Of a stretch of 64,000 bases of DNA, positions 5,749 to 10,924 are shown piece by piece (position 1 is the first letter of the stretch; every line of letters begins with the position of its first letter). The notes below the pieces were generated by a model. The model did not search any database and was not told the origin of the DNA. It worked only from the letters and a program-made list of their open reading frames with translations. Source of the stretch: Promethearchaeota archaeon (GTDB taxonomy: Archaea; Asgardarchaeota; Lokiarchaeia; Sigyniarchaeales; SOKP01); assembly GCA_030599585.1 (NCBI GenBank), contig JAUVNS010000002.1:224001-288000 (forward strand), in the 5' to 3' direction. A program made the translations under genes and the position numbers.

Positions 5749-6618
5749 TTACAATTGCCTCCTTTTGAATAAAATTGCTGCTAGCAAGAAACAAGCAACG
5801 ATATATACGAGCAATAGCGTCGTTCCCATAAAAATACTAGGGGTTGCCCAAGAACCGAATGAAAAATCACCACCTCCCATTCCAGGAGGACCCATCCCTC
5901 CGAACGAAAACTCGGCATATCTAGGATCTGGAAATGGATTTAGCAATATTGAGGTAACTAAATTACCCAAATATGCTAATGAGTATAAGGGTTCAAATGC
6001 GTCTGCAAATATTAAATTAATAATCTGGTCAGCTATGTTAAATCCCATAAGAAGAATAACCAAGGTGATTATGATTGTAATATTTACATTTTTCATAAAA
6101 GAACTGAATAGGGTCACAAAGCTGCTTAACGCTATAACATATAATACAGCAAATCCGAACGAATAAAATATCCGAATGTTAATAGGTCCACCATAATATA
6201 AAAACCCAAAGAGTCCGAGTATAAAATAAAACACTGCAACAATGAATACCACAAGTATTAGATTTCCAAGATACTTTCCTATAATCAATTTGTATTTGTT
6301 TATTTTTGGAAAGACAATAAAACCAGTTCTTTTGTTGAACTCAGAACAGATGATACCCGAAAAGAATAAACACGCCGCAAATAATGTTATGAACGAGATA
6401 AAGTTCAAACCGCTACTAAAGAACTCTGCTTGTGTATCTGCTAAAAGAAAGTCCGGAAACAATTGCAAAATATAACCCGTTAACACTGCAATTAAGATTG
6501 AAATTAGTGTAAAAAAGTAGAGTTTTTTTCTCTGTTTTTTCATTTCAAAGATTATCGTGTGATATATTGGCGATAATCCAATAAAAGTCTTATCTTCATT
6601 ACGCATTTTAAGAATCAT
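5749..6618 (-). CDS. ABC-2 type transporter permease
   Basis: Six TM helices, ICSEFNKRT...IIGKYLG motif, ends FKRRQL; follows ABC ATPase. Confidence 0.8.
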   Translation of the reverse strand: MILKMRNEDKTFIGLSPIYHTIIFEMKKQRKKLYFFTLISILIAVLTGYILQLFPDFLLADTQAEFFSSGLNFISFITLFAACLFFSGIICSEFNKRTGFIVFPKINKYKLIIGKYLGNLILVVFIVAVFYFILGLFGFLYYGGPINIRIFYSFGFAVLYVIALSSFVTLFSSFMKNVNITIIITLVILLMGFNIADQIINLIFADAFEPLYSLAYLGNLVTSILLNPFPDPRYAEFSFGGMGPPGMGGGDFSFGSWATPSIFMGTTLLLVYIVACFLLAAILFKRRQL

Positions 6619-7654
6619 CTCCTGTTAATTTAATTGTTCCTTCTGGTGTATTATCCGTTACCATTTGGGAATATACTCTCTCAAGTTGAGTAGTCCTTGG
6701 TTGAATGAATGAGAGAATTGTGAAATCTGACTCAAATTCTTTAACTAAAATTTTCAAGATTTCTCCTTTCGATTCTTTTTTTCCATCAAAATAAAATTTT
6801 AGTCCTTGATGTTCTATATTATATACTATAGGAATTTCTGCTGTGTTTGGATCTAAATTCTGATCTAAATAAGGATTAAGCCTATCAACCATTCGAATAA
6901 GTAAAGGAGCCCGTTTCTCAGAAGGAAGCGGATTCAGTAAAACACAATTTATCTCGCTGGTTTTTAGTGTAAGTGCTAAGTTGTCGACGGTGTCAAAGCC
7001 TATAATCTTCCCATAGTTAATGAGAGCAATTTTATCACATATTTCAGCAATCTCGTAGAGCATGTGTGATGCTACAAAAATAGTTTTTCCTAATTTTGAA
7101 AGTTTTCTGATATATTTCCGTATCTCTATTCTCGCAAGTGGGTCTAATCCCGTTTGTGGTTCGTCCAAAATTATAATATCGGGATCGTGGAGAATTGCTT
7201 GAATGATTCCTAATTTTTGCGTCATTCCTTTTGAGTAGTTCCTAACTCTTTCATGTTTCCAGTCTGAAAGCTTGAAGAGCTCTAAAAGCTCGTCGATTCT
7301 ATTCTCTAATTTATCTTTTGGATATCTCTGAATTTTTGCAAAGTATTTGAGTAATTGATATCCCGTCATGTTGTAAAAATTAGGGATGTCTATTAAGAAG
7401 CCAATCTGGCTAACTGTTGAAGATACACGCGCCAAGTCTTTCAATTCGCTATCGTTCGTTCTAATTAGGATTTTCCCTGCATTTGGTCTTAAAATCTTTG
7501 CAATCATCTTTATCGTGGTTGTTTTTCCTGCGCCGTTTGGACCTACTAATCCTATAGTTTCTCCTCGTTTTACTTCTAAATTAATACTGTTGACCGCAGT
7601 AAAGTTTCCAAATTTTTTCGTTAAGTTTTCTAGTTTAATTACTGTTTCTGACAT
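6608..7654 (-). CDS. ABC transporter ATP-binding protein (exporter type)
   Basis: Walker A GPNGAGKTT, signature YSKGM, Walker B IIILDEP, SH motif. Confidence 0.95.
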   Translation of the reverse strand: MSETVIKLENLTKKFGNFTAVNSINLEVKRGETIGLVGPNGAGKTTTIKMIAKILRPNAGKILIRTNDSELKDLARVSSTVSQIGFLIDIPNFYNMTGYQLLKYFAKIQRYPKDKLENRIDELLELFKLSDWKHERVRNYSKGMTQKLGIIQAILHDPDIIILDEPQTGLDPLARIEIRKYIRKLSKLGKTIFVASHMLYEIAEICDKIALINYGKIIGFDTVDNLALTLKTSEINCVLLNPLPSEKRAPLLIRMVDRLNPYLDQNLDPNTAEIPIVYNIEHQGLKFYFDGKKESKGEILKILVKEFESDFTILSFIQPRTTQLERVYSQMVTDNTPEGTIKLTGDDS

Positions 7655-7678
7655 TATTTCTTCATTTTTGATTTAAAT

Positions 7679-8248
7679 TTATGATACATCTTCATTTCGA
7701 TTTTTATCGTCCAATTTTATAATTTTATCTTCAACCTTGTGAAGATTTTGGTTTAAAATTTCAATTCTTTTTTTGAGAAAAGTTCTCTGGAATTCTAAAA
7801 CTTGTCGTGTTTCAATTCCAGGTTTGTGAGTCATTGCTGCAAAAGGAGACCTCTGATCAAAAATGTCATTCAATTCAATACTAGTTAATTCGTCCTTAAT
7901 TCCAAATGTAGATGTGATAATAGATCTCATAGATTCTCTTATTTTTTGCTCCTTTTTAACCATTATTTCAAGCGTATTCTTACCGTCTTCTGTGATATCG
8001 TAAGTTATTGTTTTTTCATCTGTATCGGATGTTTTAATCGAGCTTATTAGATTTTTTTCTCGTAAGTCTTTTAGAATTGTATAAATTGTTGAGTCTGTGG
8101 GCTCCCAGCATCCAAATGTGCGTTCTTCTATAGCTTTTTTGATCTGACGACCGTGCATAGGTTCTTTCTCTAAAACCAATAAAGTTAGGGTACTAATAAA
8201 TCCCTTTTTCATTGCTTTTTCAAATTTCCCGACAATATCTTCAACCAA
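7679..8248 (-). CDS. PadR-family transcriptional regulator heading the ABC operon
   Basis: PMHGRQI...STIYTILKDL...TYDITEDG. Confidence 0.85.
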   Translation of the reverse strand: MVEDIVGKFEKAMKKGFISTLTLLVLEKEPMHGRQIKKAIEERTFGCWEPTDSTIYTILKDLREKNLISSIKTSDTDEKTITYDITEDGKNTLEIMVKKEQKIRESMRSIITSTFGIKDELTSIELNDIFDQRSPFAAMTHKPGIETRQVLEFQRTFLKKRIEILNQNLHKVEDKIIKLDDKNRNEDVS

Positions 8249-8270
8249 AAGGCGTCACTCTAAAAATTGT

Positions 8271-8341
8271 ATCGATTATTTTTATTAAAATCGAAATGTA
8301 TCAGTTATCGATATAATGGATATATCGGTTTCCGTTATAAA
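8271..8341 (-). promoter_or_regulatory. Promoter/operator array of second padR operon
   Basis: TATA-like TTTATAAC on minus strand at 8334-8341; ATCGAT-like hexamers at 8271, 8290, 8307 and 8324. Confidence 0.4.
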
Positions 8342-8729
8342 CTTTGATCTTCTAATTAATTAGAATTTCAATACCTCAACCGATTAATCCTAGCTTTATT
8401 AGCTTAATTAAGTTAAATGATTTAGCGTTACATAAATTCAATAGTAACGAGAAAAAATTTAGGATTTTGCCTCAAATTTAAAATTGTGGAAATTAATTTG
8501 TAGAAAAGAGAAAAGGGTTTTATTATGAATAGATAGAAATTTCTGAAAAGAATTTACGTAAAATCATTTGACTTCTTAAAACTAGTATAATACGCTTAGA
8601 TATATTGTTCGTGAAATCTATGAGTGTTTCGAGTATATTATTCTAGTATTATATTAATATATTATTCTGTTTTCTCGACTAAATATTAAAAATAACAGTT
8701 TTAACAATTCATAAGGTGGTTTGAAAAAG

Positions 8730-8923
8730 TTGAAGTTAATAACCTGTCATGTGCCCGAATTCATTTGAAATTTCTTCAAATTTGAAGGGAAGCTTATCTG
8801 GCAGGAATTGAAGATTTAGTAAATCTGAATATATACCCAAACCGATCTGAAGTTATCAGAGTTGCGATTCGAGATCTCTTAAAAACGGAGTTAAGCACAG
8901 TATTTCATAGGAAACAAGAATAA
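8730..8923 (+). pseudogene. Ribbon-helix-helix (CopG/Arc/MetJ) regulator interrupted by a 32-nt insertion (pseudogene or spliced/bypassed gene)
   Basis: TTG at 8730 reads MKLITCHVPE; frame resuming at 8792 reads AYLAGIEDLVNLNIYPNRSEVIRVAIRDLLKTELSTVFHRKQE*; the halves join into a typical archaeal RHH if 8760-8791 is removed. Confidence 0.8.
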
Positions 8924-9030
8924 TTTTTTTTTTCCTTTCTTTATTATTTTTATTCTTCTTCGAATATAGCCAATTGAAAATCTTATTTTACTGAACAGTT
9001 TTTTATGCTACACTGTGTTATATAATTTCA

Positions 9031-10008
9031 ATGTTAGGAATAACTTTGTGGATACTAGTTTTTATCGGAAGTTATTTTATTATATTTTTTGCTGCTGACA
9101 TTTTTTTAGATAATTTGAAAGATATATGTGTTATCTACAATTTATCACCTTTTATTATTGGAATGTTGGTTCTTGGAATTGATCCTGAAGAATCAATTGC
9201 GTCCATAATCGCTGCTATTAACGGGCTACCTTACGTTTCTATTGGAAATGTGGTTGGTAATTCTATAATTGCTATGACATTACCATTTTCCTTAGCTTTA
9301 CTATTCTACACTTTGAAATTTAAATCGCTTTCAAAATTTTACTTCATATTATTATATATTTTGATAATTAATCTTCTTTTTAGCTTCCTATTTAACAATT
9401 TTATGTTTATATCCGGTTTAATCGCTTTGTGTGTTTATATTATCTATTTTTTTAGGAACCTGAGACATTACTCCCAAGAAAAGGATAGAAATACAGGAGA
9501 TATCGAAGAAGACCTAAAATTTAACGAAAAAAAACCGATGGAATTACAAGGATCCTCTAAAGCGAAGAAGATCTTTTTAACATCTATTGGGTTGGTTTTT
9601 ATTTTTATAGGAGGTGAATTACTAATTTTATCTGCGGATCAAATTATTGATATCCTGCATATACCCGAAGCGTTTTTTGGATTTATCATAATAGGGTTCG
9701 TCACTAATGTAGAGGAATTAACCTTGATTTTAAAATCGATAAAGAAAAAGGCTGTAGAAATTGGTTTCGGAGGTATGGTTGGCAAATTAATTTGGAATTT
9801 AACAATAACTTTCGGAATTAGCGGGGTTATCATGACACATATACCTTTTAAATTAATATTAATATGGAATTGGATAATATTATTACTAGTTATAGTATAT
9901 TTCAACCTTTCTTCTAGAAGAGAAAAACTTACCAAAAAAGATGGGTTAATTTTGTTGGTCTTCTTTATAGTTTTTATCATAATTAATGTTTTTTTAGCGG
10001 AAATTTAA
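9031..10008 (+). CDS. Na+/Ca2+ antiporter (CaCA/YrbG-like)
   Basis: Two alpha-repeat-like segments (DPEESIAS...IGNVVGNS; TNVEEL...GGMVGK), about 10 TM. Confidence 0.75.
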   Translation: MLGITLWILVFIGSYFIIFFAADIFLDNLKDICVIYNLSPFIIGMLVLGIDPEESIASIIAAINGLPYVSIGNVVGNSIIAMTLPFSLALLFYTLKFKSLSKFYFILLYILIINLLFSFLFNNFMFISGLIALCVYIIYFFRNLRHYSQEKDRNTGDIEEDLKFNEKKPMELQGSSKAKKIFLTSIGLVFIFIGGELLILSADQIIDILHIPEAFFGFIIIGFVTNVEELTLILKSIKKKAVEIGFGGMVGKLIWNLTITFGISGVIMTHIPFKLILIWNWIILLLVIVYFNLSSRREKLTKKDGLILLVFFIVFIIINVFLAEI

Positions 10009-10057
10009 TTTTACGTTCTATTCAATATTTTTATGCGTTCAATAATTCATTGATTTA

Positions 10058-10924
10058 ATGAGTTATACACTTGAAGATTTCACTTATATTGATACCCACT
10101 GTCATTTCTTTCCTCCTCAAATATTTAAATCAATCTGGAATTTTTTTGAAAGTCCCGATGAAGAGGGTAATCAACGAGGTTGGGATATAAAATATAAATT
10201 AACTACAGATGCGCAAATAAATTTTCTCGTAAATCACAGAGTTAAATATTTTACAACATATAATTACGCACATAAGTCAGGGATGGCTGAAAATTTAAAT
10301 GATTGGACTTATGAACTGATAAGAAAAAACAAACATGCACTACCTTTCGGGTGTGTATGGCCTGAAGATGCTAATCGAGTCGAATATATCCAGAAACTTC
10401 TCGATGAGTATAAGTTTTTAGGAATCAAATTGCAGTTGCTAGTTCAAAATTTTTATCCCAACGATGAGCGTATGCATGATATATACAAAATCGTTGTAGA
10501 TAGGGGAAAATGGATAACATTTCACGTTGGAACTGCCCCATACCATAACCAATTTGTTGGATATAAGAATTTTATTAAATTTATTGAAAAATACCCCAAC
10601 ATAAATGTCATCGTTGCTCACTTAGGTATCTATGAGAATCGTAAGTTTTTTGACTTGCTTGATAAGTATAACAATCTTTATTTAGACACAGCGATGGTCT
10701 ATTTACCTAAAGTCTTCACAAAAAAATGGAAAGAAAAAATTGATTATCCCTCTGAAGAAGAATTATTATCTTACGAGGATAGAATATTATTTGGAAGTGA
10801 TTTCCCTCTTATCTCATACGACTACTCTTGTTCTACTGAAGGATTGTTAAATCTAAACTTACCTAAATCTTTTTACAAAAAAGTATTCTTTGAAAACGCA
10901 AAAAAAATCTTTGGAATAAATTAA
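10058..10924 (+). CDS. Amidohydrolase family 2 protein
   Basis: IDTHCH, FHVG, IVAHLG, ILFGSDFP motifs. Confidence 0.9.
   Translation: MSYTLEDFTYIDTHCHFFPPQIFKSIWNFFESPDEEGNQRGWDIKYKLTTDAQINFLVNHRVKYFTTYNYAHKSGMAENLNDWTYELIRKNKHALPFGCVWPEDANRVEYIQKLLDEYKFLGIKLQLLVQNFYPNDERMHDIYKIVVDRGKWITFHVGTAPYHNQFVGYKNFIKFIEKYPNINVIVAHLGIYENRKFFDLLDKYNNLYLDTAMVYLPKVFTKKWKEKIDYPSEEELLSYEDRILFGSDFPLISYDYSCSTEGLLNLNLPKSFYKKVFFENAKKIFGIN

Follow-up and report, generated by a model that had tools for sequence, protein, structure and literature searches.

Splicing of an intron out of an archaeal protein-coding sequence has been shown experimentally for cbf5, whose pre-mRNA in Desulfurococcales and Sulfolobales carries a bulge-helix-bulge (BHB) intron of 16-44 nt, introns in other protein genes having, according to that study, only been predicted (Yokobori 2009, PMC2738675). 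In Haloferax, a BHB intron cut by the tRNA splicing endonuclease EndA lies in the 5' untranslated region (UTR) of HVO_1309 (PMC7714728, 2020), and a study of non-canonical introns in Asgard archaea deals with tRNA genes alone, its text mentioning neither mRNA nor cbf5 (bioRxiv 10.64898/2026.10.13.758758). Our literature search (most subscription journals were outside it) found BHB splicing within archaeal coding sequence confirmed only for cbf5, plus the one 5' UTR case, and did not turn up mRNA introns described from any Asgard archaeon. Here we describe a 32-nt insert in the gene of a ribbon-helix-helix (RHH) regulator, located in a 64,000-nt stretch of a Promethearchaeota archaeon genome (contig JAUVNS010000002.1, forward-strand positions 224,001 to 288,000; hereafter the window), which is very probably a BHB intron removed from the mRNA by EndA. 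The RHH inserts resemble the cbf5 intron in being short, located in coding sequence and devoid of open reading frames (ORFs) (30-40 nt as compared to 16-44 nt), in their often relaxed BHB, in a host with a hetero-oligomeric EndA, and in being gained and lost among relatives. They differ in that the host is an Asgard archaeon (Promethearchaeia), that the interrupted gene encodes a transcription regulator, that the host genome has further interrupted genes (uS3, uL11, Elf1 and radA paralogs), that the distribution of the intron allele is at odds with the species tree, that the insert of one locus lies 1 nt over, and that splicing, experimental for cbf5, is here inferred from sequence. With HVO_1309 the locus probably shares an mRNA as substrate of the tRNA splicing endonuclease; that intron, however, sits in an untranslated leader, whereas the RHH insert breaks the frame, so that its removal must be base-exact. 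The Asgard tRNA introns are likewise short BHB-bounded inserts, with repeated gains, a two-subunit EndA and relaxed motifs, but the insert of the RHH gene is in an mRNA. The mechanism itself is known; new are its lineage, its multiple occurrence in essential genes, the displacement by one base and what appears to be lateral spread.

The RHH gene starts with TTG at 8730 (position 1 being the first base of the window) and is interrupted after 10 codons (MKLITCHVPE); both halves are intact, the second comprising 43 codons followed by a TAA that ends at 8923. Joining 8730-8759 to 8792-8923 yields a 53-aa RHH protein with the junction PEAY. An earlier note, made from the letters of this stretch alone, had placed the insert at 8760-8791 and had remarked that its removal restores PEAY, and on both points the sequence agrees. 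When an ortholog lacking the intron served as reference in an unbiased homology search, exactly this 32-nt excision came out as best. The other elements it had described are present as well: TGA in both relevant frames (8766-8768 in that of exon 1, 8783-8785 in that of exon 2), a 14-nt palindrome (8774-8787) and GAA at both ends of the insert. In archaeal introns, one strand of the central helix and two bases of the first bulge come from the end of the exon, whereas the partner strand and two bases of the second bulge come from the end of the intron. When this rule is applied (i.e. a cut inside each 3-nt bulge), the register CCCG (8754-8757)/AGGG (8786-8789), with bulges at 8758-8760 and 8790-8792, excises exactly 32 nt. 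The elements of the gene and of its predicted fold are:

8714..8720, + strand: Shine-Dalgarno-like AAGGTGG upstream of the start, seen in the sequence, of putative function
8730..8759, + strand: exon 1, TTG start, encoding the ribbon strand and the Pro-Glu of the RHH protein
8743..8753, + strand: 5' arm of the helix between the two exons, with 8743-8749 pairing to 8799-8805 and G8753 to C8793
8754..8757, + strand: exon strand CCCG of the central helix (Pro codon and first G of Glu), pairing with 8786-8789
8758..8760, + strand: 5' bulge AAU, predicted cut after AA (between 8759 and 8760)
8760..8791, + strand: probable 32-nt intron with in-frame TGA at 8766-8768; homologous inserts in 17 other loci
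8763..8781, + strand: intron hairpin with a 7-bp stem (8763-8769 with 8775-8781) and a 5-nt loop, pair probability 0.96
8786..8789, + strand: intron strand AGGG of the central helix, inner G.A mismatch in the window copy
8790..8792, + strand: 3' bulge AAG, predicted cut after AA (between 8791 and 8792)
8792..8923, + strand: exon 2, encoding helices A and B of the RHH domain, with the PNRSE motif

With three of four central pairs, two 3-nt bulges and exact excision, the window copy is a relaxed BHB flanked by both an exon-exon and an intron-intron helix. Pair probability reaches 0.99-1.0 in the distal exon clamp, 0.75 in CCC/GGG and 0.22 in G8753-C8793, and the exon-exon duplex (-10.9 kcal/mol) is stronger than in synonymous shuffles (-5.2 kcal/mol). 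The fold proposed earlier (a GAA bulge next to TTCA/TGAA) is not the relevant register and does not restore the frame; the accompanying caveat that 33-34 nt would be excised, and that canonical splicing would be unfit, is overturned by the exact-excision register, which fits 15 of 15 aligned inserts and removes exactly 32 nt from the window copy. Neither Rfam nor a PDB sequence search gave a match.

As shape alone proves little, the case for an intron rests on comparison. The same junction is interrupted at 18 loci, by 17 different inserts whose lengths are 30, 31, 32, 34, 35, 39 or 40 nt; looking for one in orthologs, as had been proposed, gave 17 loci besides that of the window. Among the 29 orthologs retrieved from the genus, 5 carry an insert at the junction and 24 have none; a metagenome search pattern that left the insert unspecified, including the intron ends, added 11 loci, and a protein search 2 more (the gap limit for inserts was 48 nt). 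A strict pattern gave no additional interrupted case across 135 genomes of the family, and no interrupted RHH gene was found on viral contigs. Close relatives mostly bear the labels Promethearchaeia or Promethearchaeota, which makes the host a Loki-type Asgard archaeon, as the mention of Lokiarchaeia in the earlier note had implied. Every 30- and 39-nt insert contains an in-frame stop, hence no insert can be read through, and taking it out gives back a conserved frame on which selection acts. The search for other copies that had been proposed found the window insert only once in the host genome, even when up to 7 substitutions were allowed, and the insert core is present in 4 of 42 genus genomes, at the RHH locus only.

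The inserts vary around a constant geometry. In the exact-excision register, at least 3 of 4 central pairs are present in all 15 aligned inserts, and all four in 9 of them, as compared to 0-4 of 15 (and never all four pairs) at the other offsets between -3 and +3. Over the whole structure 94% of the cells are paired (exon-exon helix 92%, intron hairpin 98%), vs 20-55% in slid controls. The third base of the Pro codon, which is synonymous, pairs with the intron as C-G in 11 inserts, U-A in 3 and A-U in 1, a both-sided change that amounts to about two independent compensations, not four; the innermost central position holds G-U in 8 inserts and G-C in 2, and is left unpaired in 5. Two further loci, L257 and L266, also fit a relaxed BHB at the exact-excision register. 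In L266 the homologous hairpin lies 1 nt further downstream, a new helix with all four pairs (CTGA/TCAG) is present, and the bulges AGA and AAC (cut after AG and AA) again yield PEAY upon excision. In the intron alleles the exon-exon duplex has an energy between -7.4 and -12.8 kcal/mol and is stronger than synonymous shuffles (p 0.00-0.06). The intron-less genus alleles do not surpass their shuffles, and 23 of 24 have a duplex weaker than -6 kcal/mol. The exception (L005, -7.9 kcal/mol) is the sister of the intron-bearing L007 and looks like a recent, exact intron loss.

Both exons are under purifying selection in the intron-bearing alleles. The ratio of nonsynonymous to synonymous differences (pN/pS) is 0.028 in exon 1 of intron-bearing and 0.083 in that of intron-less alleles, and 0.119 vs 0.141 in exon 2; the window and L044 differ by 18 synonymous and no amino-acid changes over 44 codons, and no exon shows decay at synonymous divergences of up to 0.85. 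As pN/pS is low in the presence of the intron, the protein is still made and a dead gene is ruled out. We consider the comparative evidence unusually clean, in that the intron covaries with a synonymous base of the exon, one copy is shifted and both exons are under selection, and the option of an endonuclease-spliced mRNA intron, one of several in the earlier note, emerges from it strongly supported.

According to the mechanism we propose, exon 1, insert and exon 2 of the pre-mRNA would fold into the relaxed BHB, a host EndA of the (alpha-beta)2 type would cut after the second base of each bulge (between 8759 and 8760 and between 8791 and 8792), and RtcB would join the exons into an mRNA encoding the 53-aa CopG/CdrS-like RHH regulator, whereas translation of the unspliced mRNA would end after 12 codons. 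A regulatory role for the intron is possible. In the sequencing runs screened no joint of 8759 to 8792 was seen; the two runs that were probably DNA did not cover the junction, and this speaks neither for nor against splicing. The host genome, a metagenome-assembled genome (MAG), encodes an intact RtcB and two endA paralogs of ~200 aa (at ~165.4 kb of contig C24 and ~67.4 kb of contig C35) that score above the TIGR00324 cut-off, one with the His and Lys of the catalytic subunit and the other without the His (our own assignment); this inventory is consistent with a hetero-oligomeric EndA accompanied by an RNA ligase, the arrangement of the subunits being presumptive.

Several points weigh against EndA splicing. 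The window copy is not a strict BHB with a 4-bp central helix (inner G.A mismatch, and U.U in the outer helix), and its BHB conformer is ~3 kcal/mol less stable than the fold predicted as the minimum; the covarying pair is mismatched (A.A) in L257, and a different central pair (C.A) in L036. As the inserts are related to one another, the shuffle statistics make them look more independent than they are, and cutting and ligation are themselves deduced from the sequences. Moreover, BHB-like shape alone is weak evidence: an ab initio genome-wide scan for BHB and coding potential found 171 loci in the real register, no excess over the 174-177 of the control registers, and was discarded as it also missed the known positive. 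The relaxed motif of the window copy leaves some room for removal of the insert without EndA, either through DNA-level excision in a fraction of the population or through a different RNA nuclease or ligase, and the existence of an exact intron-less sister allele (L005 beside L007) would suit such a process. We nevertheless regard it as unlikely, since every copy, even the shifted one, has a geometry that follows the EndA cut rule, the free use of G-U pairs points to pairing at the RNA level, and no recombinase or nuclease gene adjoins the RHH gene.

Translational bypassing as in T4 gene 60 had also been considered. In that gene, matched codons surround a hairpin and a stop directly follows the take-off codon. 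The window copy resembles it in having matched GAA codons (take-off 8757-8759, landing 8789-8791) around a hairpin, an arrangement found in 11 of the 15 aligned inserts, with a stop three codons after take-off. The matched codons, however, are not conserved: in three orthologs (L040, L044 and L046) the insert ends in GAT, and in L266 it lies 1 nt over, which leaves the codons unmatched, yet their exons remain intact and conserved. Nor does a stop regularly follow take-off directly, as it is the third codon in most inserts, the first in two, and absent from the vicinity in L036, L038 and L266. Bypassing also leaves the covariation between intron and Pro wobble base unexplained, and we judge a ribosomal hop very improbable. 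Equally improbable is an inactivating insertion with a 3-bp target duplication that would have turned the RHH gene into a pseudogene; the GAA direct repeat and the patchy distribution are what such an event might leave, and the four RHH paralogs of the host genome could cover the function, but purifying selection contradicts it (pN/pS is no higher than for intact alleles, at the divergences given above), and the inserts diverge in length and sequence yet keep the fold. An assembly artefact or a multi-copy micro-element, i.e. a miniature inverted-repeat transposable element (MITE) or a repetitive extragenic palindromic (REP)-like sequence, might be read from the palindromic AT-rich core and from the estimated contamination of 8.9% in a MAG rated 100% complete, but has a negligible chance of being correct, given homologous but different inserts in 17 other loci from separate assemblies (which also answers the doubt that the insert was unique to this strain), its single-copy occurrence and the want of core copies at unrelated sites.

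An EndA-spliced intron in the RHH gene would not stand alone in this genome. A homology scan against ~1.6 Mb of a sister genome recovered the RHH, uL11 and Elf1 inserts and added one in uS3, and these four cases among roughly a thousand matched genes are a lower bound. The further inserts (G000 being the host genome and C numbers its contigs) are:

G000 C11:38119-38148, - strand: uS3 insert, 30 nt, containing TAG and TAA in frame and interrupting the only uS3 gene
G000 C28:32730-32757, - strand: uL11 insert, 28 nt, frameshifting, in the only uL11 gene; BHB register
G000 C32:69753-69782, - strand: Elf1 insert, 30 nt with a stop, in the only Elf1 gene; BHB register
G000 C12:53171-53201, + strand: insert in a radA paralog, 31 nt; BHB register
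G000 C49:50207-50237, + strand: insert in a radA paralog, 31 nt; BHB register
G000 C32:105846-105878, - strand: insert in a putative alpha/beta hydrolase gene; BHB register, checked by geometry only

The uL11, Elf1 and two radA inserts were confirmed by comparison with intron-less orthologs, and among relatives uL11 carries inserts of 29 and 28 nt in two and none in a third. For uS3, the BHB register restores the EMPQ of the ortholog, with an inner A.G mismatch reminiscent of the window copy; a homologous 30-nt insert occupies the same site in G014, where that register gives only 2 of 4 central pairs, and the G014 gene has a second, 28-nt insert upstream (L222). Since uS3 is essential and its only gene is interrupted, the host must be able to remove such inserts exactly. 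Two other candidates were rejected: the one at G000 C47:8751 proved to be a gene boundary, and the one in EF-2 of G150 a lone stop codon. Mobile introns with a homing endonuclease do not describe the RHH inserts, as these are only 30-40 nt long (longer ones, beyond the gap limit, were not searched) and, in the window, no ORF of at least 40 aa lies between padR and the antiporter gene.

The sister genome G017 is intron-less for RHH, uL11, uS3 and Elf1, and has BHB-like inserts of 30-34 nt of its own in other genes on its contigs C11, C17 and C19 (L101-L108, L141-L147, L160 and L150-L152), one of which, by its motif, we take to resemble DnaG primase. In-frame stops also occur inside the EF-2-family matches of G023, G014, G015 and G148 and may mark further introns. 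ARAGORN detected only 21 tRNA genes in the host genome, many with odd introns, a low count that is consistent with heavily interrupted tRNA genes.

The intron-bearing RHH allele is distributed in conflict with the species tree, its five genomes falling in five separate places of the EF-2 tree. Synonymous divergence between G005 and G013 is 0.09 for RHH, 0.40 for EF-2 and 0.51 for uS3, and that between G031 and G034 is 0.59 for RHH, with 0.08 and 0.17 for the markers EF-2 and uS3 (small codon counts, 29-44, underlie these values). Moreover, G005 (L058) is ~0.9 identical to the window over the RHH and antiporter genes and 0.67 on both sides. Owing to this conflict, the simplest reading appears to be lateral replacement of the intron-bearing allele, the alternative being that repeated loss, marker transfer or mis-binning produced the pattern; the tree of RHH alone is too poorly resolved for counting gains and losses. 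Along window positions 5749-10924, L058 and L062 (G016) show ~90% identity in the RHH and/or antiporter genes and 66-67% in the flanking ones, and this mosaic identity suggests frequent gene exchange within the genus.

We see even chances that a broader scenario holds for the genus, in which endonuclease-type mRNA splicing would be routine and obligatory (uS3, uL11, Elf1 and RHH), with short, ORF-less introns that come and go between species, that spread when whole alleles are replaced laterally, and that can slide by one base while rebuilding the splice helix. If so, close prokaryotic relatives of eukaryotes would hold a small and dynamic set of introns in protein genes. Confirmation would mean that several Asgard mRNAs are spliced by the tRNA machinery, which bears on the origin of interrupted protein genes before spliceosomes. 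Standard annotation would miss or truncate genes interrupted in this way.

The product of the RHH gene is a putative CopG/CdrS-like transcription regulator. The intron-less ortholog scores 34.4 bits against Pfam RHH_1 (PF01402; cut-off 20.5) and exon 2 alone 21.4 bits, and the best NCBIfam match is CdrS (E 1.5e-9), although at 37.7 bits it stays below the cut-off of 100 of the model NF058555, which is halophile-specific. CdrS is an RHH cell-cycle regulator (PMC7439475); like CdrS and aCcr1, the window protein is a small RHH protein with a PNRSE motif, and it differs from CdrS in scoring under the curated cut-off and in having no ftsZ neighbour. No ftsZ or ftsZ2 lies beside the gene, which is on contig C24, tubulin-signature genes being found on C3 and C28. 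In the window its neighbours are a padR gene in divergent orientation and the gene of a Na/Ca antiporter, and genus-wide the locus is flanked by padR or an ABC operon and by the Na/Ca antiporter or an amidohydrolase gene. A promoter and terminator scan of the locus gave nothing above shuffles; the GGTG motif of the Shine-Dalgarno-like site is kept in the genus orthologs. At the start position, 23 of the 24 intron-less genus orthologs (L006, L008-L029) have ATA or ATT in place of the Met codon, and 7 intron-less orthologs are without an in-frame ATG, GTG or TTG upstream, for which reasons AUA/AUU initiation in these orthologs looks real. Most intron alleles have a TTG start after an apparent 5-nt insertion, and the RHH paralog at G000 C40:168497 likewise begins with Ile. 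Furthermore, in L260 and L257 part of the RHH coding sequence is duplicated in tandem just downstream of the gene.
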